A stretch of 64,000 nucleotides of DNA from Escherichia phage VEc20: sequence record MN022785.1. One strand, 5' to 3'. A program made the position numbers and the translations under genes. Below the pieces are notes generated by a model. The model searched no databases. It worked only from the letters and a program-made list of their open reading frames with translations, and had not been told where the DNA came from. Shown here one piece after another: positions 2,417-63,085 of the stretch. Within the stretch, counting starts at the first letter, position 1; each line of letters begins with the position of its first letter.

Positions 2417-2448
2417 AATTATATCACATCCTTGTGGTAAAGTAAACT
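2417..2448 (-). promoter_or_regulatory. T4 early-type promoter (-35 GTTTAC, 17-18 nt, TGaTATAAT) driving rIIA.1/rIIA
   Basis: revcomp reads GTTTAC-tttaccacaaggatgtg-ATATAAT between gene 39 stop and rIIA.1 start. Confidence 0.6.
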
Positions 2449-14298: not shown

Positions 14299-14633
14299 TC
14301 ACAAGATGTAGATGAACAACTAGAATCACAAGAACTTCCACATGAATCGCCCGTCCACACATGAACAGGAACATTAGTATCATATGAATCAGAACTAGAC
14401 TGTGTATTCTGCGTATTAGATGATGTAGGTGTTGACCAACGCCAAGGATTTTTATAATATTCCTGGGCTTCTTCATAAGTCATAGTAACTGCTTCTACTG
14501 TTCCATCTCCCATATAAACATATTCAACTACAGTTAAAGGAAGGTAGTCATTTGAAATAGGAACTACACCTTCTCCGGGAGTTGTAGAGAAAAAATCCGT
14601 AAAGAAACTTTTAAACCAATTAAAGATAAACAT
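14295..14633 (-). CDS. small membrane-anchored protein with Cys/Ser-rich C-terminal tail
   Basis: ORF track 14295..14678; start trimmed to ATG 14633 (TAATG overlap); hydrophobic N-terminus, tail [18 protein letters not shown]. Confidence 0.5.
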
Positions 14634-14845
14634 TACAAAAAGCCTCTTTGAAATTCGACTCTTTGAAATCCACCCCAATCAGTGTATCGCATTTCAGCAT
14701 TGAACTCGACTGAACCATCTGCATGCATCATGAATGAATGCGTGACGATATCACAATCCCAGCTTTTCATACCCCATTTATCAGAGATAGCTTTATCAAG
14801 AACCTTCTGGAGGTCTTCATTTGGTTTAATCCAACGATTTAACAT
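14633..14845 (-). CDS. hypothetical protein
   Basis: 70-aa ORF with GAGGAG RBS. Confidence 0.55.
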   Translation of the reverse strand: MLNRWIKPNEDLQKVLDKAISDKWGMKSWDCDIVTHSFMMHADGSVEFNAEMRYTDWGGFQRVEFQRGFL

Positions 14846-14870
14846 AGTGTTCTCCTCTATAAGATATTTT

Positions 14871-14902
14871 TATTATACCACACTCATTTTGACATGTAAA
14901 CC
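14871..14902 (-). promoter_or_regulatory. T4 early-type promoter (GTTTAC, 18 nt, TGGTATAAT)
   Basis: perfect extended -10 on minus strand upstream of ORF 14633..14845. Confidence 0.55.
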
Positions 14903-14914
14903 ATAAAATGAAAA

Positions 14915-14936
14915 AAGGAATCCCGGAGGATTCCTT
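14915..14936 (-). terminator. rho-independent terminator after soc
   Basis: 9-bp stem aaggaatcc/ggattcctt, loop cgga, followed on minus strand by UUUUUCAUUUU. Confidence 0.6.
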
Positions 14937-14943
14937 AAATTAT

Positions 14944-15180
14944 TTAACCATCTATTGATGTAGGCGTAAACATTGCAGCATTCTTAGTTTTCCAGTCAGC
15001 TGCATCAGAAACTACAGTAGAATATGCTGCCTTTTCAGAAGGAAAGGTCTGATAATGAGAATCTGCAATACGATGCTCGTTAGAATAGATTTCAAACGGA
15101 ACAGAAACTTCCATACCTTTAACTTCTTTGCCTTCACCTGCTGGATGAGTAAAGGTCTTTATATTAACGAAACCACCCAT
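14944..15180 (-). CDS. soc: small outer capsid protein Soc
   Basis: 78-aa ORF; VNIKTF and HYQTFPSEKAAYSTV segments recognisable as Soc. Confidence 0.8.
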   Translation of the reverse strand: MGGFVNIKTFTHPAGEGKEVKGMEVSVPFEIYSNEHRIADSHYQTFPSEKAAYSTVVSDAADWKTKNAAMFTPTSIDG

Positions 15181-15210
15181 AATAAACTCCTTTATTGTTT
15201 AATTACAGGT

Positions 15211-15218
15211 GTATTTAT
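15211..15218 (-). promoter_or_regulatory. T4 late promoter TATAAATA upstream of soc
   Basis: plus strand tatttata = revcomp TATAAATA, about 30 nt upstream of soc ATG. Confidence 0.6.
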
Positions 15219-15389
15219 ATCAATCTTCAATGAAAACTTGTGCCAGGAATTCATGCTCATCTTGAATTTGTTTATATAAAGCCATTACAGCATTTATGTT
15301 AGAGCTATCTACTTTAAGTTGATAAGCATACCACTCATGTAAATTAATTAAAGCTTTTTGACGTCTAATAAATTCTTCTTTGGATATTT

Positions 15390-18747: not shown

Positions 18748-18805
18748 AACAATCTCCTCATTTAACCAACAAGACTACTATACCATAGTCTTGTCAGCTT
18801 GTAAA

Positions 18806-20233
18806 CTAAAATTTTAATTCATTTGCCAAAGCATCTAACTGAGCTCGAGTGGATTCATTTCTTTGATAGCGATTCTGCTCAGCCTGAATCTGTTGTGAAC
18901 CTGCTACTTCGTTCACTTCAGTTGGAGTAGAATCTTGTTCAATTTCTACCCATTTTTGATTTCCTTTTTGAACACCCATCAAAAACTTATTCCATTTGTT
19001 CTTATCACCATATCGTGATTTGATTTGCTTAATGAGTTGTTGTTCAGCAGCTGCTAGCTCCTCGGTTTCAATGACCGCAAGCATAAAATCGGCTGTTGCT
19101 GGAAGACCAGCAGATTCTGCAATATCGCTCATGTTAACATCAGAAGAATCCCAAGCCTGTTTACCAACCTGTGCTGCAGTCCAAAGAACAGTTTCGGTTT
19201 CAACAGCAAGAGCACGCAATTCCTCTGCAATAGCTTTAACAGTTGTGTAACTATTTTCTGAATAAACTCTAATGCGGCAAGATTTACAAATACCTAGATA
19301 GTCGACAATAATGATTGTTGGAACAAAATTCTTCTTGAGCTTCAATTCGTTTAAAAGTGATCGAAATGTATTAGCGTCTGCTCCACCAGTAGGATATTGC
19401 TTAACGATTAAACGACCAAGGGTAGATTTCTCACGCCATTTTTCCATTTTTCCTTTATATTCAGCGTAAGAAATATGCCCATCATCAATGTCATCAAGAG
19501 AAACATCAAGCATGTTAGCGTCAATACGCTTAGCACAGACTTCTTCTGCCATTTCCATGGAAATGTAAAGAACGTTATGACCAAGCTGCAAATAATCTGC
19601 TGCTAATGAACAAAGTCCTAATGATTTACCGACGTTAACGCCAGCCATTAAAACGTTCAGTGTTCCAGTCTCAGCTCCGCCTTTAGTAATTTTGTTTAGA
19701 ATTCTGAGTTTAAATGGAACCTTACGAGCTTTATTCATATAAGATAGCCAACGTGCTTCATAGTCATCCATCCAATCATGGCCAACGTAGCTATCAAATG
19801 AAATTGATAATGCTTGGCGCATGATGTCAGGAATAGCACCTACATCTGGCATTTTCTTATTTCGTTTTTCTGGAGGAAGCTCAGCATTGGTTTGAATTTC
19901 GATTATTTTAGACGTAGCATTAAACATCGCCCTTTGCTGAACATATTTTTCTGTTTCTTTTATTAACCAGCTGTGGTCTTCTGGAGAATCAGCCAGTTTT
20001 GAAATAAGTGTTTTTACACCAGAATATTCTGTTTCAGTAAATGAACTATTTTCTAATGCAACATTTAACGCATTAATAGATGGAACGCTATGATACTCAT
20101 TAACATGAGATTTAATTAATTTGAATGTATTTTTAGCTGGACCACTTTCAAAATATTCTGAATCCATATATGGCCAAACTTTTGAAAAATAAGCTTGATC
20201 AAATATGAGATGAGAAAGAATAATTTCTACCAC
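18806..20233 (-). CDS. 41: replicative DNA helicase gp41 (DnaB-like)
   Basis: 475-aa ORF; Walker A GVNVGKS; size matches T4 gp41. Confidence 0.9.
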   Translation of the reverse strand: MVEIILSHLIFDQAYFSKVWPYMDSEYFESGPAKNTFKLIKSHVNEYHSVPSINALNVALENSSFTETEYSGVKTLISKLADSPEDHSWLIKETEKYVQQRAMFNATSKIIEIQTNAELPPEKRNKKMPDVGAIPDIMRQALSISFDSYVGHDWMDDYEARWLSYMNKARKVPFKLRILNKITKGGAETGTLNVLMAGVNVGKSLGLCSLAADYLQLGHNVLYISMEMAEEVCAKRIDANMLDVSLDDIDDGHISYAEYKGKMEKWREKSTLGRLIVKQYPTGGADANTFRSLLNELKLKKNFVPTIIIVDYLGICKSCRIRVYSENSYTTVKAIAEELRALAVETETVLWTAAQVGKQAWDSSDVNMSDIAESAGLPATADFMLAVIETEELAAAEQQLIKQIKSRYGDKNKWNKFLMGVQKGNQKWVEIEQDSTPTEVNEVAGSQQIQAEQNRYQRNESTRAQLDALANELKF

Positions 20234-23319: not shown

Positions 23320-24050
23320 TTTCCAGTATAATCCTTTTTAGCAATATGAGTCTCACCGGTGTTCCACCAATGGTCAACTAAATAAAACTGATTTTCGTAC
23401 ACATGAAGACTTCCAACGTTCCATATAATAGAACCTGCTTTATATTGCCGCGATGGGTCGCCTGCATTCAAATCAGATACTAATTTATCTAGTACGTATT
23501 TTTGCCAAGCATAATCATTACGATAGCCTGCCCAGCAATCATTGCTTCTCATGCTAACAACCGCATTGACTTTCTTATCACGAATCAGGTACTGTACTGT
23601 ATTAGTACACATGAAATCTGACATACCATCTTTATTGTAGTCAAATTGCATGGATGGACGAGTATAAATCATGATACCACGTCGAGAATCAGGATTTTGA
23701 CCAAGTTCAGCTAAACACATATCATACTGGGCATAGTTATCTTCTGACCAAATAGCCCAACCATAATTCGAGTTAATTTCGCCTTTAGAAGATGCTACCT
23801 GCTGCCAAATCTTTGGTGTTTCACCTGGAATATCTTTAACGAACAAGCTCTTAGATTTATACCATTCAAGTTCACGCTGAATGTATTCATCATTAAGAGC
23901 GCCAAAAATAAACGGTTCATCTGCTATAAATGATGCGCCAATAATTTCAATAGTTTTAACGCCAGTTTTATCAACTACGAAATCTTTTTCTTTTAATGCA
24001 AGCCCCAAATGAAGACGGATTTCTTCAACTGTCATAGAGTCATTAATCAT
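23310..24050 (-). CDS. 42: dCMP hydroxymethylase gp42
   Basis: 246-aa ORF; thymidylate-synthase-like fold; size matches T4 gp42. Confidence 0.9.
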   Translation of the reverse strand: MINDSMTVEEIRLHLGLALKEKDFVVDKTGVKTIEIIGASFIADEPFIFGALNDEYIQRELEWYKSKSLFVKDIPGETPKIWQQVASSKGEINSNYGWAIWSEDNYAQYDMCLAELGQNPDSRRGIMIYTRPSMQFDYNKDGMSDFMCTNTVQYLIRDKKVNAVVSMRSNDCWAGYRNDYAWQKYVLDKLVSDLNAGDPSRQYKAGSIIWNVGSLHVYENQFYLVDHWWNTGETHIAKKDYTGKWK

Positions 24051-24057
24051 TTAAACC

Positions 24058-24207
24058 TCAATTGATGCATTCATATTTAAATTGTAACAGTAATAAACCC
24101 CACCCTATGATAAGAGTTGGAATCATAGCAGGAACTGTTACGCTATAGTATATACTTATTATAACCATCAAGATTAAAAGCAATGCTGCTATAATTTTGC
24201 TTTTCAT
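24058..24207 (-). CDS. small membrane protein (49 aa)
   Basis: hand-translated MKSKIIAALLLILMVIISIYYS...; ATGA overlap with imm stop. Confidence 0.35.
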   Translation of the reverse strand: MKSKIIAALLLILMVIISIYYSVTVPAMIPTLIIGWGLLLLQFKYECIN

Positions 24208-24455
24208 TCCTTCTCTCTGATGATAATTACTTGATTTGGCTGTGCAGACTTTTTAGTTTCACCCGCAATTGACCAAATAAATGTAATAAACCAACCAATA
24301 ATTGACCAGTTAAACAGTAAAGATGTGAAAAAGATTCCTACTGTCGATTTTGACCCACGCATCAAGGCGATAAACCATGGAAGCATGTATATAATAATAG
24401 CCAACACACCTGAAACTAAAACCATAAAAATTGAACCTGCTACTAAAGTTTCCAT
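24204..24455 (-). CDS. imm: Imm, superinfection immunity membrane protein
   Basis: 83-aa ORF with two transmembrane segments; size matches T4 Imm. Confidence 0.85.
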   Translation of the reverse strand: METLVAGSIFMVLVSGVLAIIIYMLPWFIALMRGSKSTVGIFFTSLLFNWSIIGWFITFIWSIAGETKKSAQPNQVIIIREKE

Positions 24456-24462
24456 GTTTTCC

Positions 24463-24855
24463 TCACTTAGTCAAATTTTTTACACATGAATTATAAGAAT
24501 TCACTACATACTCCATAGGAGCATTTTTACCTGTACGCCACTGGTAATTATTAGCCCAATTTGCCCAAAGTTCAGCGCAGTAGTTTTCAATTTTTTCTTC
24601 GCGTGTAATTACATCTGAATTACGATATGCTTGAGCAGATTCATCTGGACGAATAGCTTCGTCAAAATTCGCCTGCATTTGTTCTACTGTTTGCTTTGGA
24701 GCTTCTTTATAACACTTGACATTAGGATTATAAAATTTGCTTGAACAGTTTACAATTTTTCCTGCATCAGACTGATTTACTACCGGTCCTTGAGCTACAC
24801 AACCAGTAAGACCTAATGCAATAACCAAAATAGCGATTTTCATTTCATTCTCCAA
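24463..24855 (-). CDS. putative lipoprotein (imm.1 position)
   Basis: 130-aa ORF; signal peptide with lipobox LTGC. Confidence 0.6.
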   Translation of the reverse strand: MENEMKIAILVIALGLTGCVAQGPVVNQSDAGKIVNCSSKFYNPNVKCYKEAPKQTVEQMQANFDEAIRPDESAQAYRNSDVITREEKIENYCAELWANWANNYQWRTGKNAPMEYVVNSYNSCVKNLTK

Positions 24856-24876
24856 ATCCGTATTAGTTGATAGTTG

Positions 24877-24908
24877 TATAGTACCATGGAAGAACAGTCT
24901 TGTAAACA
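24877..24908 (-). promoter_or_regulatory. T4 early-type promoter (GTTTAC, 18 nt, TGGTACTAT)
   Basis: part of repeated promoter module also seen near 50102 and 52021. Confidence 0.55.
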
Positions 24909-24993
24909 GTTTTGTGAAAAATTTTTTAGGGAATTCTAAGGGTCCAGAATCATCTGTTTTTCATAAGTATAGATTTATATTACTTGTATGAAA

Positions 24994-25013
24994 AAGGGAC
25001 CCGGAGGTCCCTA
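24994..25013 (-). terminator. stem-loop terminator after gene 43 (agggacc-cgga-ggtccct)
   Basis: 7-bp GC stem followed by U-tract on minus strand. Confidence 0.55.
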
Positions 25014-25024
25014 GATTTATTCTA

Positions 25025-27721
25025 TCAGCCAAACAGGAAGTCTAACGAAGCTTTTTCTTCATAGTCCATACCAGCCGATTCACACATACCCGCAAGCGGT
25101 TTAACAAACGATTTTTGGAACAAAGTTGAGTAGTCAATCCAAGATAGTACATCAGAACGAATTTCTTTTGGAAGTTCTGTGCCCGACGGCCAAGCAATGC
25201 ACTTGTCACCAAATGGATTTCCTTCACGCAATGGAAGAACCATTACTTTATTTCCATCCAAAATTGGAGCTACACCCAGACCACTAACAGCTCGACGATA
25301 AGTTAGCACACCGCGAATATGGAACGGGCATTTAAATCCTGGCCAACCTTTATCATCATATTTCGCTATATCGTTCGCAGTTTTTACTTCAGCAATAACT
25401 TTATAGTCGAGTTGACGATATTCTTTCTCGAAGTTCTTGTAATATTCTTGGACAGACTCTTCACCTTCCTGAAGAATACGACGAATACTTTCTTCGAGAG
25501 CTTCTTGCACTGCTTTTGGTGTTGAACTCTGCTGAGTTTCCATACCCATGATTTTTAGATGTGGTTCAGCAAATCGCTTATCTTCCATATCATAAACGTT
25601 CAGAGCATAACGCTTTTTCGCTTTCCAAAATCCGCCAACGCCCTTTGAACCAAGCGGAGGGCAAGAAATAGCTTCACGGTCCATATGCATCAGATGCTCG
25701 CGGTTATTCATATAATCACATAACTCACGATATGCAACATCAATCATAGGTTCCATCTTTTTCTTACCGAACTGATTCATGAATTCAACCAAATCGTTCT
25801 GCTCTTTGAATCGGTCAAGACCTACTTTTTCAATAACTTTATCTACACAAACATATACCGAATCAGTATCACCTGCTGCAATGAAATCTTCGCCATTAGT
25901 TCCGCATACTTTATTCAGATATTCATTAATTTTACGAGCAATCCACTGAATACCGACTTGGCCAAAAATTGTGATAGCAGTAGCATTTCGCAAATCATAG
26001 TAACGGAAATGAATATTACCAAGAGCACCATAAAGACTGTTAATGAGAATTTTACGGTTCAGCTGATTTGTGTTAGCAAGTGTAGCAGCTTTTTCACATT
26101 CCTCAATCAGACTATTGAGAACAGATTCAGTATAATTCGACAGTTCATTTAAGAAATCATCACTGAACTTAACATATCGTTCAACTTCTGGTTTAGTTGA
26201 ACAAGACCCTGCGCCTTTCATAATAATCTTTTTAATAGCTTCGGCATTCATTTCTTCAGCGAACATTTTCTTTTTCCAGTCTTTACGCTGGAAAAATACT
26301 TTAGCGATTTCCTTTGGAATGATACCTTCTTGATGCTTATCATACATCCATCCATTCGGAGAACAAGAATATTCATCACTTGGTTTAGGAGCTGTTCCTG
26401 CGATATATTCATGAATTGGATGAACTTTAAACTGCCCACGAATAGTCTCAGGACTAATGTTAACCTGACGAATAATGCTAGGATACAGAGACGTCAAGTC
26501 AAAACTCATAATATATCGACGAGCAATTGGTTTAGGTTCAAATACAAATGCACCCGGAAAACTCTGTTTAACATGCGAACCTTGTTGAGGAATAACCTTG
26601 TGTTCACCTTTCAATGAGTTAAAAATAATAGCATCCCAAGTTTTAATAGGACTCATTACACCAGAAAAAGGCATTTTAGCATAATAAGACATACTTAAAA
26701 CTAGATCGATAAACCCGCGAATTTTATCAATTGCTTGAACTGATTCTACGTCAATGATGTTATAACTAATATATCGCTGATGATTAGTCTCACGAAGTTT
26801 ATTAATAGGACCATCGTACGGTAATTTACCTTTTTTGGTTTCATGTTGAGCAACTGATTCCAAAGAGAATGACGGCAAATTAGTAAATGCGAATTTCTTA
26901 TACAAATCTAAATAATCAAGAATAGATACGCCATCAATAGAATAAATTTCTTTGCTACCGTACATATTTTGAATTAGTTTAGATTTTACCCGACCGATTG
27001 GAGAGAAACGTTTCATACTGCGTTCACCGAGAACCATTTTAACGCGATTCATGATATACGGAACGTCAAATCCCTCAATATTCCAACCAGTAAAAATAGC
27101 AGGTCGTTTCTGTTCCCAGAGATTAATATATTCCATGAGCATATCACGCTCATTATCAAATGGCATATAAATTACTCGGTCAAGAATTTCTTGAGGAACT
27201 TCATCACCACCTTCACAGTCAAGCTTAGCAGCTAACTTTGCATCCCATTTTGATACTGAACCGTACATTGAATTCAAAAGGTCGAAAACATAAAAACGAT
27301 CGTCAATTGAATCATAATGAGTGATAGCATCAATTTCATATTCAGCTTTCATTGGGTCAGGAAATTTATCACCAGTAACCTCAATGTCACAGTTAGCTAC
27401 ACGAACAAATTTTCGGTCATAAACAATTTCTGAACCATACGTATCACTGATATAAGCGAGTTTAAAATCGTTCATACCAAGAGCTTCGAGACCGATGTCT
27501 TCCATTCGCTTCATCCAATCTCGAGCATCTTTCATTGATTGAAATTTTTGAGGAGCGCAATTTTTACCATAAATGTCTTTGTACTTTGACTCTTCCTTAC
27601 AATGCCTAAACATAGTTGGAAGATATTCTACTTCACGAGTACGTTCCTTTCCGTTTTCATCAATATAACGTTCAACAATGTTATTTCCGACTGTTTCGAT
27701 AGAGATATAAAATTCTTTCAT
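25025..27721 (-). CDS. 43: DNA polymerase gp43 (family B)
   Basis: 898-aa ORF; exonuclease and polymerase motifs (e.g. AAGDTDS); length matches T4 gp43. Confidence 0.95.
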   Translation of the reverse strand: MKEFYISIETVGNNIVERYIDENGKERTREVEYLPTMFRHCKEESKYKDIYGKNCAPQKFQSMKDARDWMKRMEDIGLEALGMNDFKLAYISDTYGSEIVYDRKFVRVANCDIEVTGDKFPDPMKAEYEIDAITHYDSIDDRFYVFDLLNSMYGSVSKWDAKLAAKLDCEGGDEVPQEILDRVIYMPFDNERDMLMEYINLWEQKRPAIFTGWNIEGFDVPYIMNRVKMVLGERSMKRFSPIGRVKSKLIQNMYGSKEIYSIDGVSILDYLDLYKKFAFTNLPSFSLESVAQHETKKGKLPYDGPINKLRETNHQRYISYNIIDVESVQAIDKIRGFIDLVLSMSYYAKMPFSGVMSPIKTWDAIIFNSLKGEHKVIPQQGSHVKQSFPGAFVFEPKPIARRYIMSFDLTSLYPSIIRQVNISPETIRGQFKVHPIHEYIAGTAPKPSDEYSCSPNGWMYDKHQEGIIPKEIAKVFFQRKDWKKKMFAEEMNAEAIKKIIMKGAGSCSTKPEVERYVKFSDDFLNELSNYTESVLNSLIEECEKAATLANTNQLNRKILINSLYGALGNIHFRYYDLRNATAITIFGQVGIQWIARKINEYLNKVCGTNGEDFIAAGDTDSVYVCVDKVIEKVGLDRFKEQNDLVEFMNQFGKKKMEPMIDVAYRELCDYMNNREHLMHMDREAISCPPLGSKGVGGFWKAKKRYALNVYDMEDKRFAEPHLKIMGMETQQSSTPKAVQEALEESIRRILQEGEESVQEYYKNFEKEYRQLDYKVIAEVKTANDIAKYDDKGWPGFKCPFHIRGVLTYRRAVSGLGVAPILDGNKVMVLPLREGNPFGDKCIAWPSGTELPKEIRSDVLSWIDYSTLFQKSFVKPLAGMCESAGMDYEEKASLDFLFG

Positions 27722-39141: not shown

Positions 39142-39175
39142 GTTAATAATACCATAGTTTGAACTCGTTGTAAAC
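39142..39175 (-). promoter_or_regulatory. T4 early-type promoter (GTTTAC, 18 nt, TGGTATTAT)
   Basis: promoter half of a promoter + stem-loop module. Confidence 0.5.
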
Positions 39176-39256
39176 AACTTTGTGAAAAATATTTTAGGGA
39201 ATGATAAGAAAGGAACGATAACTTAGAATGGTAATATACAGAATGTGAGAAAGAAA

Positions 39257-39270
39257 GGCCCAGAGGGCCC
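39257..39270 (-). terminator. short GC stem-loop followed by U-rich tract
   Basis: ggcc..ggcc stem, UUUCUUUCUC downstream on minus strand. Confidence 0.35.
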
Positions 39271-42968: not shown

Positions 42969-43010
42969 AATAAAACCCTTACCTTAAATAGATAAGGGTA
43001 TTTATTATTT

Positions 43011-43057
43011 TTAAGTATTGTAAAACATTCGATGCAATCGTTTATACTGTCGAATCA
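43011..43057. repeat. imperfect direct repeat copy 1 (about 46 bp); copy 2 at 43224..43269
   Basis: about 40 of 46 positions identical between copies. Confidence 0.7.
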
Positions 43058-43187
43058 TCTTTTTAGTAGGACGAGAATAGGTTCCTACGCAAGTGGTCAT
43101 ATGAGGGTCCGTAGAATGTCCTTTAATAAAAAGTTTCCAAACCTTACCGCCATTTAACTTTTCAGTATAAACCAATTCGGTTTTCAT
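43011..43187 (-). CDS. hypothetical small protein (58 aa) whose C-terminal 14 residues duplicate the pin C-terminus
   Basis: hand-translated; ends IRQYKRLHRMFYNT vs pin IRQYKRLHQMFYNT. Confidence 0.35.
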   Translation of the reverse strand: MKTELVYTEKLNGGKVWKLFIKGHSTDPHMTTCVGTYSRPTKKMIRQYKRLHRMFYNT

Positions 43188-43199
43188 TAAAATGTCCTG

Positions 43200-43298
43200 T
43201 CAGAAAAAGAATTTTGAGTTTTTTCAAGTATTGTAAAACATTTGATGCAATCGCTTATATTGCCGAATCTTTTGGTCAGAAAAAGAAATTTGAGTTTC
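43200..43298. repeat. duplicated pin 3'-end segment: 23-bp B-repeat (43200-43222, 43276-43298) flanking A-repeat copy 2
   Basis: tcagaaaaagaattttgagtttt vs tcagaaaaagaaatttgagtttc. Confidence 0.65.
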
Positions 43299-47098: not shown

Positions 47099-47128
47099 AT
47101 TAATCTCCTCAGTAGAAAGTAAGAACAT

Positions 47129-47156
47129 TATACCACATCCTTGTGGCAAAGTAAAC
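47129..47156 (-). promoter_or_regulatory. T4 early-type promoter, near-identical to rIIA.1 promoter at 2417..2448
   Basis: GTTTAC-tttgccacaaggatgtg-GTATAAT. Confidence 0.55.
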
Positions 47157-50101: not shown

Positions 50102-50131
50102 ATAGTACCACAGAGGAACAGTCTTGTAAAC
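50102..50131 (-). promoter_or_regulatory. T4 early-type promoter (GTTTAC, 18 nt, TGGTACTAT)
   Basis: about 45-bp module near-identical to 24870-24915 and 52012-52058. Confidence 0.55.
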
Positions 50132-51519: not shown

Positions 51520-51542
51520 TTTTACATTTGTTTTGATAGGGT

Positions 51543-51573
51543 AATAGTATCACACTACTACCCTGCTGTAAAC
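51543..51573 (-). promoter_or_regulatory. T4 early-type promoter upstream of AAA ATPase
   Basis: GTTTAC, 18 nt, TGATACTAT. Confidence 0.45.
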
Positions 51574-51576
51574 AAT

Positions 51577-51840
51577 TTATTTTAATGTTTGCCAAATTTT
51601 TACTGCTTCGCGACGAGATACTTCTACAGCTCCAAGTTCTACAGCTTTTTGGCGTCGCCGAGCGTGTAAGTCATAATGTTTAATGCGTTTATCTTGAAAC
51701 CAAGAACGTTTCATTCCTATTGCTTCTGCCATTTCGTGAAGCTCTTCAATATCTCCATCAGTGAACATATGACAATTTTTAGTTGGATGACCGCGAAGTT
51801 TCCATCCATGATTCATTAAAACATCTACGTAAACTGTCAT
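51577..51840 (-). CDS. hypothetical protein
   Basis: 87-aa ORF. Confidence 0.5.
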   Translation of the reverse strand: MTVYVDVLMNHGWKLRGHPTKNCHMFTDGDIEELHEMAEAIGMKRSWFQDKRIKHYDLHARRRQKAVELGAVEVSRREAVKIWQTLK

Positions 51841-51986
51841 TGATTCTTCTCCAAATAAGTTTCGATAATTTTCTGGGCGAGATAAACCGCGTTATCTTCA
51901 GTTGCGTCTTCTAAGAAACTTTCAAAACACTCTGAAATTTCTTCTGTATCAATCAACTTTTTTACTTCAATTGGTGTAATTTTCAT
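51837..51986 (-). CDS. hypothetical small acidic protein (49 aa)
   Basis: hand-translated MKITPIEVKKLIDTEEISECF...; ATGA overlap with next gene. Confidence 0.35.
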   Translation of the reverse strand: MKITPIEVKKLIDTEEISECFESFLEDATEDNAVYLAQKIIETYLEKNQ

Positions 51987-52020
51987 TTTGTTTTCCGTTT
52001 AAGTGTTTGTTTTGATAGTT

Positions 52021-52052
52021 GTATAGTACCATAAAGCTTTATGCTTGTAAAC
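52021..52052 (-). promoter_or_regulatory. T4 early-type promoter (GTTTAC, 18 nt, TGGTACTAT)
   Basis: promoter half of a promoter + stem-loop module. Confidence 0.5.
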
Positions 52053-52054
52053 AA

Positions 52055-52085
52055 CTTTGTGAAAAATTTTTGAAATAAAAAAGGG
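52055..52085. repeat. 31-bp exact direct repeat copy 1 (ctttgtgaaaaatttttgaaataaaaaaggg); copy 2 at 52675..52705
   Basis: identical 31-mers 620 bp apart, flanking ORF 52111..52611. Confidence 0.8.
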
Positions 52086-52106
52086 GACCTCTAGGGCCCC
52101 TTTTAT
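52085..52106 (-). terminator. stem-loop (aaaagggg ... ccccttttt)
   Basis: 8-bp stem with 10-nt loop, U-tract on both sides. Confidence 0.4.
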
Positions 52107-52110
52107 GCTT

Positions 52111-52611
52111 TTATTCCATTTCTATTATATGCATGCTCTTTTTGCTATCAAAATATATGTTTTTAACTGTTAACTCCGAATTAATTGGCAATAAAAACTC
52201 TCTTTCATAATCCACCATAGAAAGATTATCATAAAGCTTATTAAGCTTATCATCATCAATCTGGCCAGATTCTTCAATTGCGATTAAATTTTCTAAAATT
52301 TCAATCATAGCAGTTGAATAGTCAAAAACGTTTGCATTTTTTAACACTATTAAAACATTAGTCATATAGCGTTCTGCCGCAAATGTTTCAGCTATATGAG
52401 ATTCACTACTAAAGGAAGTTATTCTTTTAAATTTGATTCTCCTATTAACTTCAAACTTATAAGATAGTACTTCCTCTATTGTAAGTCCTCTAAAAAGCAC
52501 GTCTTTAATCTCAAGTTTGTCTTTAATGTAATCATTAACACGCTTATGATTAAAATCATTAATTTTGTTGCCAAGGCATTTCATTAAAATATGCATTGTG
52601 TTTCTCTTCAA
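52111..52611 (-). CDS. hypothetical protein in promoter/stem-loop cassette
   Basis: 166-aa ORF with own early promoter, flanked by hairpins and 31-bp direct repeats. Confidence 0.55.
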   Translation of the reverse strand: MKRNTMHILMKCLGNKINDFNHKRVNDYIKDKLEIKDVLFRGLTIEEVLSYKFEVNRRIKFKRITSFSSESHIAETFAAERYMTNVLIVLKNANVFDYSTAMIEILENLIAIEESGQIDDDKLNKLYDNLSMVDYEREFLLPINSELTVKNIYFDSKKSMHIIEME

Positions 52612-52643
52612 TTTTTAAAGAACAATTAATTAACTACAAATAT

Positions 52644-52673
52644 ATTATAATATGCTTTATGATAGAAGTAAAC
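52644..52673 (-). promoter_or_regulatory. T4 early-type promoter (GTTTAC, 17 nt, TTATAAT)
   Basis: upstream of ORF 52111..52611. Confidence 0.5.
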
Positions 52674-52674
52674 C

Positions 52675-52705
52675 ACTTTGTGAAAAATTTTTGAAATAAA
52701 AAAGG
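52675..52705. repeat. 31-bp exact direct repeat copy 2
   Basis: identical to 52055..52085. Confidence 0.8.
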
Positions 52706-52721
52706 GAGCCCGAAGGCTCCC
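52704..52721 (-). terminator. GC stem-loop (gggagcc-cgaa-ggctccc)
   Basis: perfect 7-bp stem, UUCG-type loop, after nucleotidyltransferase gene. Confidence 0.45.
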
Positions 52722-52723
52722 TA

Positions 52724-55408: not shown

Positions 55409-55448
55409 TGACAAGATTACTATACCATAACCTTGCCAACTTGTAAAC
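55409..55448 (-). promoter_or_regulatory. T4 early-type promoter (GTTTAC, 18 nt, TGGTATAGT)
   Basis: upstream of ORF 54726..55283. Confidence 0.45.
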
Positions 55449-56202: not shown

Positions 56203-56227
56203 GATGTTCTCCTCTTTATCCGATGGT

Positions 56228-56260
56228 TGTATAGTACCACAGCTCAAACGGAAAGTAAAC
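56228..56260 (-). promoter_or_regulatory. T4 early-type promoter (GTTTAC, 18 nt, TGGTACTAT)
   Basis: promoter half of a promoter + stem-loop module. Confidence 0.5.
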
Positions 56261-56275
56261 CGGTAAAATGAAAAA

Positions 56276-56293
56276 AGTCTCCCGAAGGAGACT
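56276..56293 (-). terminator. GC stem-loop (gtctcc-cgaa-ggagac)
   Basis: perfect stem, UUCG-type loop. Confidence 0.45.
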
Positions 56294-60442: not shown

Positions 60443-60472
60443 ATTATACCACAGTCAAGAGGAAAAGTAAAC
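60443..60472 (-). promoter_or_regulatory. T4 early-type promoter upstream of regB (GTTTAC, 18 nt, TGGTATAAT)
   Basis: perfect extended -10. Confidence 0.55.
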
Positions 60473-62613: not shown

Positions 62614-63030
62614 TTAAATGTAAATATTTTTGCCGTAATACTTATACCAGTGTGGCTTCATTAAAATTTTTTCATCGAGTCGTTGTTGACTCAACTTAAT
62701 AGCTGATTTGCATGGATTATAATCATTTTTCCATTCTACTGGAATATCGCTGATGTCAGGAACTTCAGTATCTTTTATACTGAACCCGCGTTTTAAGCAT
62801 TCCGTTATAATGTCCGATTGACGCTTTCGCAAAAATTCTAACTTATCGTAAAAGAAAGTAACATGACCAGAACCTAAAATAAATTTAGAAGATATTTTAA
62901 AATCTTTAACGCGCTTACCGTTTGCCACATGCTTACGAACTATACCAAAAACACGCGGCAATTCACGGTATTCTGCGATTAAATGTTGATCAGCAAGTTC
63001 AGATACTAAAGTCAAATTAATACGAGTCAT
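62614..63030 (-). CDS. denV: endonuclease V (pyrimidine-dimer DNA glycosylase)
   Basis: 138-aa ORF; N-terminus [17 protein letters not shown] recognisable. Confidence 0.9.
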
Positions 63031-63049
63031 TTTATCCCTCCAAGTAACT

Positions 63050-63085
63050 GTGAATATACTATCACAATTCTAGGAGAAAGTAAAC
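63050..63085 (-). promoter_or_regulatory. T4 early-type promoter upstream of denV
   Basis: GTTTAC, 18 nt, TGATAGTAT. Confidence 0.45.

Follow-up and report, generated by a model that had tools for sequence, protein, structure and literature searches.

The window considered here, which is the whole 64,000-nt stretch of Escherichia phage VEc20 DNA that was analysed (MN022785.1), begins at rIIA, and its early genes all lie on the minus strand, as do all the promoters and hairpins described below. At about 24.9 kb, the junction between gene 43 and imm.1 contains, in the direction of transcription, a predicted terminator hairpin after gene 43 (24995..25012; AGGGACC-UCCG-GGUCCCU and then UUUUUCA; dG -13.9, z -3.5) and, 88 nt further on, the imm.1 early promoter. 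This promoter comprises an UP element (approximately 24908-24930), a core, GTTTACAAGACTGTTCTTCCATGGTACTAT, in which a -35 element, a 17-nt spacer, TGn and a -10 element can be recognised (24878..24907, orthologous to T4 27051-27080), and a leader with Shine–Dalgarno sequence and ATG (24843-24877).

Megablast searches with 24000-26500 and 40000-64000 gave hundreds of matches to members of Tequatrovirus (T4, T6, RB32, RB14 and relatives) at 95-99% identity, with no identical genome for either segment among these matches, and chained blastn gave mean identities of 94.3-96.9% to six complete relatives (T4, PST, T6, fFiEco06, ACG-C40 and RB14; overall identity to Tequatrovirus genomes was 94-99%). 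By these similarities, the window is a genome segment of a T4/T6/RB14-like Tequatrovirus, and its genome appears to be a fine-scale mosaic of lineages of that genus that are already known. The RefSeq record of T4 carries no promoter features, so that T4 promoter names could not be transferred to sites in the window. One region (14550-15250) is 100% identical to phage vB_EcoM_NBG2, yet this phage is not among the best matches for 24-26.5 kb or 40-64 kb.

The first-pass annotation had described a near-identical module at 24.9, 50.1 and 52.0 kb, with a similar one at 56.2 kb, and this description holds: an 18-mer, GATAGTTGTATAGTACCA, occurs exactly at 24869, 50093 and 52014 and with one mismatch at 56222, where 0.02 matches would be expected from shuffles (none of which reached 5), and a repeat search of the window grouped 24867, 50091, 52012 and 56220 as a single family. 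The minus-strand sequence of all four is GTTTAC-N14-TGGTACTATACAAC(T/C)ATC, in which a -35 element is followed, after a spacer of 17 nt, by a -10 element with the TGn extension and then by the initial transcribed region; besides the core, all four carry an UP element, the extended -10 and a leader. They precede imm.1, nrdC.8 (50102..50131, a promoter-only module without a preceding hairpin), ORFs Y1 and Y2 (52023..52052, discussed below) and mobD.5 (56231..56260). A generic sigma-70 scan was uninformative in so A/T-rich a window (87 sites against 85 in shuffles), and for this reason a T4-specific pattern was used. This pattern, GTTTAC-N18-TAnnnT, has 21 minus-strand matches and none on the plus strand, an asymmetry found in all six relatives (19-23 : 0), and the stricter GTTTAC-N12-16-TGGTAYWAT matches nine times against an expectation of 0.00. 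Orthologous sites are present in T4 at imm.1 (27.08 kb), nrdC.8 (53.94 kb), nrdC.10 (55.38 kb) and mobD.5 (58.78 kb), and the sites are kept at orthologous positions in the six genomes. With a GTTTAC -35 element, TGn, a -10 element of the form TAnnnT, an UP element, the orientation of the early genes and orthology in T4, these modules were rightly annotated as early promoters.

The similarity between modules goes, moreover, beyond the promoter consensus. Over the 15 positions of the spacer, identity is 14/15 between the promoters of rIIA.1 (2418..2447) and nrdC.4 (47127..47156), 12/15 between those at 24.9 and 50.1 kb (pair 24907/50131), and 11/15 between those of dmd (18777..18806) and mobD.2 (55419..55448); in column-preserving shuffles, three pairs with at least 11/15 arose in 0.2% of trials, and two pairs with at least 12 never did. 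As these identical spacer positions are not part of the consensus, common descent or conversion, and not consensus alone, would be the source of the similarity. The paralogous dmd and mobD.2 promoters also contain a 9-bp inverted repeat, ACAAGACTA...TAGTCTTGT, embracing the -10 element, which could be an operator or a hairpin at the 5' end of the RNA.

A scan of IMG/VR for the 18-mer found it at 27 loci, on a handful of T4-like contigs and in at most eight copies per genome. In an alignment of these loci and the reference genomes with T4 and PST, at least nine unrelated genes were preceded by the same -10/+1 18-mer, and loci from outside the region of the window had only a module of 65-105 nt in common with the window or T4. 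At two of the loci (L017 3284 and L030 2819; IMG/VR contig IMGVR_UViG_2974787500_000001), the module is degraded: the UP element and -35 have been lost, and the terminator hairpin directly abuts the -10 element.

Terminator-type hairpins had been annotated at promoters in four places, and stems do fold at all four (dG -10.8 to -15.7 kcal/mol, z -3.5 to -4.4): in addition to that after gene 43, they follow soc (14915..14936, dG -13.7), ahead of the mrh.2 promoter (14872..14901), nrdH (39256..39270, with a weak U-tract, dG -15.7), ahead of the 55.6 promoter (39146..39175), and rI.-1 (56276..56293, dG -10.8, z -4.4), ahead of the mobD.5 promoter. The description of all four as UUCG-type needs correction, as it fits only the last (56293-56276, C(UUCG)G); the loops at 14936-14915 and 25012-24995 are UCCG, and that at 39270-39256 has 3 nt. 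Two further modules of hairpin and promoter had been overlooked, one consisting of a hairpin after ORF X (52084..52100; GGGGCCCUAGAGGUCCCC and then a U-run; dG -12.9) with the promoter at 52052-52023, and the other of a C(UUCG)G hairpin after nrdC.11 (52703..52722; dG -17.7, z -4.4) with the promoter at 52673-52644. Six promoters are therefore preceded by terminator hairpins, with a true UUCG loop in two (56293-56276 and 52722-52703). The distance from hairpin to promoter is 14-33 nt at 14.9, 52.05, 52.67 and 56.26 kb, and looser (81-88 nt) at 24.9 and 39.2 kb; no stem-loop lies just upstream of the 50.1-kb promoter or of most of the other 14 promoters.

In the 8 nt that follow the stem there are 5-7 U residues at 14.9, 25.0, 52.09, 52.71 and 56.28 kb, the run after the 39.26-kb hairpin being weaker, and the hairpins with their U-runs are best seen as putative intrinsic terminators of the gene upstream. 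Their sequences differ between modules, and an Rfam gathering search of the whole window returned no family. The transcribed strand of the window has nine C(UUCG)G hairpins in all, two being the terminator stems before promoters just described. The other seven (4334-4317, 20542-20523, 27797-27780, 29969-29948, 34678-34659, 35948-35929 and 38314-38299, all on the minus strand) are situated in early and middle genes or in the gaps between them, have no U-tail and adjoin no early promoter; they are probably elements of mRNA stability or translational control rather than terminators.

In the interval between nrdC.10 and nrdC.11, the window has 1134 nt (51520..52653) and T4, PST, T6 and RB14 have about 35 nt. 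This promoter-bounded insertion, absent from those four phages, is made up of an ORF-X cassette and an ORF-Y cassette. The former has the order promoter (52644..52673), ORF X (52111-52596), hairpin, UP element, and is flanked by a direct repeat of 40-50 nt, CCCTTTTTTATTTCAAAAATTTTTCACAAAGT(G/T)GTTTAC; fFiEco06 lacks the cassette, the overlap at the junction being 50 nt. The ORF-Y cassette, which is flanked by TACTAT-N6-CTATCAAAACAAA, contains ORF Y1 (51837-51986) and ORF Y2 (51577-51840, a DUF4031 protein). The core and spacer of its early promoter are those that drive nrdC.10 in T4, PST, T6 and RB14; in other words, the T4 nrdC.10 promoter, spacer included, drives ORF Y in the window, and nrdC.10 here has a different early promoter (51544..51573), at the lower boundary of the inserted cassettes. 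The ORF X product (161 aa, minus strand like ORFs Y1 and Y2) is ADP-ribosylase-like, with a match to PHROG 832, RNA polymerase ADP-ribosylase (E 7.5e-24), and no match in Pfam; the ORF was also placed at L040 2605-3090. The arrangement in the window was found in 9 of 554 records, with at least five alternative states, and the promoters at 52.0, 52.67 and 51.55 kb mark a hot spot. In Citrobacter phage CF1, a Moonvirus, the equivalent of 52012-52690 is 96% identical to the window, with nrdC.10 at 73.6% and nrdC.11 at 67.7%, and the block of high identity extends from within one promoter into the next. The position of these edges in two promoters points to a recent movement of the promoter-bounded cassette between Tequatrovirus and Moonvirus.

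Modules coincide with variation at three other loci. T6 lacks 2598 nt of the regB-to-e interval (60.47/63.08 kb), and the endpoints are the early promoters of regB (60443..60472) and below gene e (63056..63085): the T6 junction consists of the upstream half of the 63.08-kb promoter up to TTGTTTACTTT, followed by the 60.47-kb promoter, the crossover falling inside the two -35 elements with an overlap of 14 nt. Between imm.1 and gene 43, some 60% of records sampled at even intervals have an extra 246-268 nt directly below the promoter, with an extra ORF at this 24.9-kb locus being present or absent between genomes; homology at the junction is limited to ATGAAAAT, and is weak. At soc/mrh.2 (14.9 kb), the partial matches were of two kinds, covering query positions 1-401 or 270-670, with nothing but the module in common, from which it follows that the flanking alleles of soc and mrh assort independently around it. 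The 63.08-kb promoter also stands at the right edge of a variable denV/internal-protein locus, the edge (63031-63041) being in the leader just below the promoter: there, T4 has an insertion of 1094 nt with ipII and ipIII, 62618-63033 is replaced in PST, ACG-C40 and RB14, and the window has denV and no ip gene.

Other junctions are almost invariant. The genes are colinear in 498 of some 502 Tequatrovirus records at nrdC.9/nrdC.8 (50.1 kb), in 498 of 501 at rI.-1/mobD.5 (56.2 kb), where phage Shinka is the single exception, with its break at the -10 element, and in 504 of 505 at nrdH/55.6 (39.2 kb). Of six hairpin/promoter modules that were examined, three are thus invariant in about 99% of some 500 genomes, and several modules, including two of the four near-identical copies, are fixed across the genus. 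The suggestion that modules delimit exchangeable blocks of genes is therefore borne out at 51.55/52.0/52.67, 60.47/63.08, 14.9 and 24.9 kb, but not at 39.2, 50.1 and 56.2 kb.

How general is the association? The blastn HSPs of the window against each of the six relatives were chained by dynamic programming, and gaps of at least 100 nt were collected, giving a map with 55 distinct breakpoints. Eight of these (24836, 43836, 51519, 52085, 52654, 60473, 63033 and 63072) are no more than 60 nt from a promoter core, compared with an expectation from the 4.9% of the sequence so placed, an approximately threefold enrichment over random positions (binomial p=0.005) that arises because promoters sit at gene boundaries, as do most indels. 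When the gene junction was taken as the unit, using a crude longest-ORF set of gene calls, 6/19 promoter-bearing junctions were broken as against 33/103 without promoters (Fisher OR 0.98, p=1.0), and among junctions whose spacer measured 40 nt or more the figures were 6/18 and 13/28. There is therefore no enrichment at the level of junctions, and modules are not favoured over ordinary gene boundaries; mapping of modules against synteny breakpoints, the check proposed in the first-pass annotation, reveals local coincidence but no general rule.

Most of the other events were insertions of homing-endonuclease genes or introns, or indels with junction overlaps of 2-9 nt. Clean indels with an overlap of at least 14 nt numbered six, three of them in promoter modules (24836; 52085/52654; 60473/63072), and the other three being two insertions of mobC near 40.68 kb, one in T4 and one in PST, and an event at a repeat (43056/43221). 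This repeat, a 63-nt direct repeat (42994-43056 and 43207-43269, 83% identical) that represents the pin/gene 49 regulatory region and is not an early promoter, flanks a 58-aa ORF (43011-43187) that is present in fFiEco06 and absent from T4, PST, T6, ACG-C40 and RB14 (junction overlap 49-51 nt); the 43-kb locus is a second kind of ORF insertion flanked by regulatory repeats.

A different kind of exchange is suggested by comparison of promoter cores between loci. The core at the imm.1 locus is identical (30/30) to the phage's own e.8 promoter in PST and T6, and to its own nrdC.8 promoter in fFiEco06, while that of T4, to which the window is identical (30/30), is a hybrid of the e.8 and nrdC.8 types (26/30 to each); in RB14, the leader at this locus is likewise of the e.8 type. 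Orthologues differ at up to 6/30 positions among the imm.1-locus cores, and at no more than 1/30 among those of nrdC.8. It looks as though the imm.1-locus promoter has been converted by its paralogues in several genomes, and the pattern indicates that dispersed promoter copies may exchange ectopically without rearrangement.

From all this, we consider it very probable that the modules are boundaries of T4-type early transcription units, of the kind that have been termed promoter-early stem-loops (PeSLs), and that they are occasionally passive substrates for recombination. Their main job would be transcription. Along the minus strand, a module would have, in order, a terminator hairpin (in most modules), an A/T-rich UP element, the GTTTAC -35, the 17-nt spacer, TGGTAYWAT, and a leader with Shine–Dalgarno sequence and ATG; the intrinsic terminator would end the upstream gene, and the host's sigma-70 RNA polymerase would, judging from sequence and T4 orthology, fire the promoter immediately after infection. 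The modules are near-repeats of 60-110 nt scattered in a genome in which short homologies are enough for very efficient recombination, and for that reason they would now and then become substrates for ectopic homologous recombination. Its outcomes here are of three kinds: gene conversion between promoter copies, the loss of DNA between two promoters, and small self-expressed cassettes of promoter, ORF and terminator that have been acquired, lost or transferred horizontally. A role in recombination is partly supported at nrdC.10/nrdC.11, regB-to-e, imm.1 and soc/mrh.2, where its traces are visible; most modules are stable, and for most indels of the region the sites are ordinary gene boundaries or homing-endonuclease genes.

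Might the modules be purely regulatory, alike through selection for a single optimum, with breakpoints nearby only because both occur at gene boundaries? The equal breakage of junctions with and without promoters, the fixity of the 39.2-, 50.1- and 56.2-kb modules in some 500 genomes and the unusually long consensus of T4 early promoters (Hinton, 2010; PMC2988021) are all in keeping with this. Selection for one optimum would not, however, be expected to bring the non-consensus spacer positions of three pairs to 11-14/15 identity, to place the crossovers of the T6 deletion and the ORF-X indel inside module sequence (overlaps of 14 and 50 nt), to end a 96%-identity block held in common with a Moonvirus phage in two promoters, or to switch the imm.1-locus promoter between paralogue types, and we think this explanation improbable. 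Least credible of all, to the point that we give it virtually no weight, is that the similarity is a chance artefact of low-complexity, A/T-rich intergenic DNA. The generic sigma-70 scan, taken alone, would have allowed it, but chance was rejected on the specific patterns (5-9 observed against 0.00-0.02 expected), the complete strand bias (21:0) and the retention of orthologous positions in six genomes.

It is very unlikely, though somewhat less so than chance, that a dedicated site-specific enzyme, such as a recombinase or homing nuclease that recognises the hairpin or promoter, moves an active mobile element of which the modules are the ends. A protein recognising a GGGG...CCCC stem was raised as a possibility by Arbiol et al. 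(2010; PMC2839356), the cassettes are small and self-contained, and this region in the relatives is rich in homing-endonuclease genes. Against it, the points of crossover vary (-35, hairpin tail/UP element, +1 region, ATG), there are neither terminal inverted repeats nor target duplications, the hairpin sequences differ between modules, and the cassettes encode no recombinase, ORF X being ADP-ribosylase-like and ORF Y2 DUF4031; a MITE-like element was rejected on the same variation in crossovers and lack of repeats, duplications and recombinase.

Within the preferred explanation, that of transcription-unit boundaries that sometimes recombine, the observations may be joined into a more specific reading, which we hold to have about an even chance of being right. 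Distant modules would evolve in concert by ectopic conversion (the imm.1 copy having been overwritten by the e.8 type in PST, T6 and RB14, and by the nrdC.8 type in fFiEco06), modules would have bounded the recent transfer of an RNA-polymerase ADP-ribosylase-like gene between Tequatrovirus and Moonvirus, and, on the scale of the genus, PeSL junctions would be no more breakable than others. If this is so, PeSLs are occasional passive homology patches, and there is no dedicated shuffling system.

Modules of this kind would explain how small accessory genes are expressed as insulated units in T4-like phages, and how phages can acquire, shed or exchange them with the neighbouring genes undisturbed, which is relevant to the evolution of host range in phages and to the engineering of therapeutic T4-like phages. 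What the present analysis adds is a calibration: only a minority of the modules serve as points of exchange, and an ordinary gene boundary is just as likely to be broken.

Both the element and the recombination hypothesis are already known for T4-like phages. PeSLs were defined for RB49 and phi1 (Arbiol et al., 2010; PMC2839356) and then extended to PST/T4 and nt-1/KVP40, with the T-even consensus TTTACW-N17-TAYWAT, by Comeau, Arbiol & Krisch (2014; PMC4122927), who propose the same role in recombination as did our first-pass annotation. All the modules cited here fit the T-even promoter form, and alignment and consensus reveal the A/T-rich stretch upstream of the -35 and the Shine–Dalgarno sequence and start codon at the 3' end. 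The likeness to PeSLs extends to the stem-loop, AT-rich region, -35 and -10 elements, Shine–Dalgarno sequence and ATG, to the T-even consensus and to membership of the same genus as PST and T4, as well as to deletion between two PeSLs and gain or loss of cassettes; the two IMG/VR loci with fused hairpin and -10 (L017 and L030) match the 'half PeSLs' of PST. The 50.1-kb module differs in being without a stem-loop, and otherwise there is no difference in kind. A junction-level null, a survey of fixity in about 500 genomes and switching between paralogue types of promoter were not found in the portions seen of either paper (PMC2839356, PMC4122927). The junction-level null, the pattern of conversion and the inter-genus ADP-ribosylase cassette are modest additions.

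Among T4 early promoters, comparison of T4-like phages placed GTTTAC at -36 to -31 (Nolan et al., 2006; PMC1524935), and T4 early promoters have been reviewed as 'uber' UP/-35/TGn/-10 promoters with extra conserved positions (Hinton, 2010; PMC2988021). The promoters of the window resemble them in GTTTAC, the TGn-extended -10, the UP element, their location upstream of early genes and their T4 orthology; they differ in that one sub-family of the window, TGGTACTATACAACTATC, has TACTAT rather than TATAAT as its -10, and has spacer and leader sequence in common.

Intercistronic regions of T4 reportedly contain C(UUCG)G tetraloop hairpins, which Tuerk and colleagues are said to have described in PNAS in 1988. 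The nine such hairpins on the transcribed strand of the window are similar; three of the four hairpins originally noted at promoters differ in not being UUCG, and most UUCG hairpins of the window have no U-tail or promoter. Finally, in lambdoid phage mosaics, as seen in the theory of modular evolution, short conserved linker or boundary sequences occur where unrelated modules join. Like these, the modules described here are short conserved sequences at gene boundaries, but they differ from lambdoid linkers in having a defined regulatory function and in being repeated many times in one genome.
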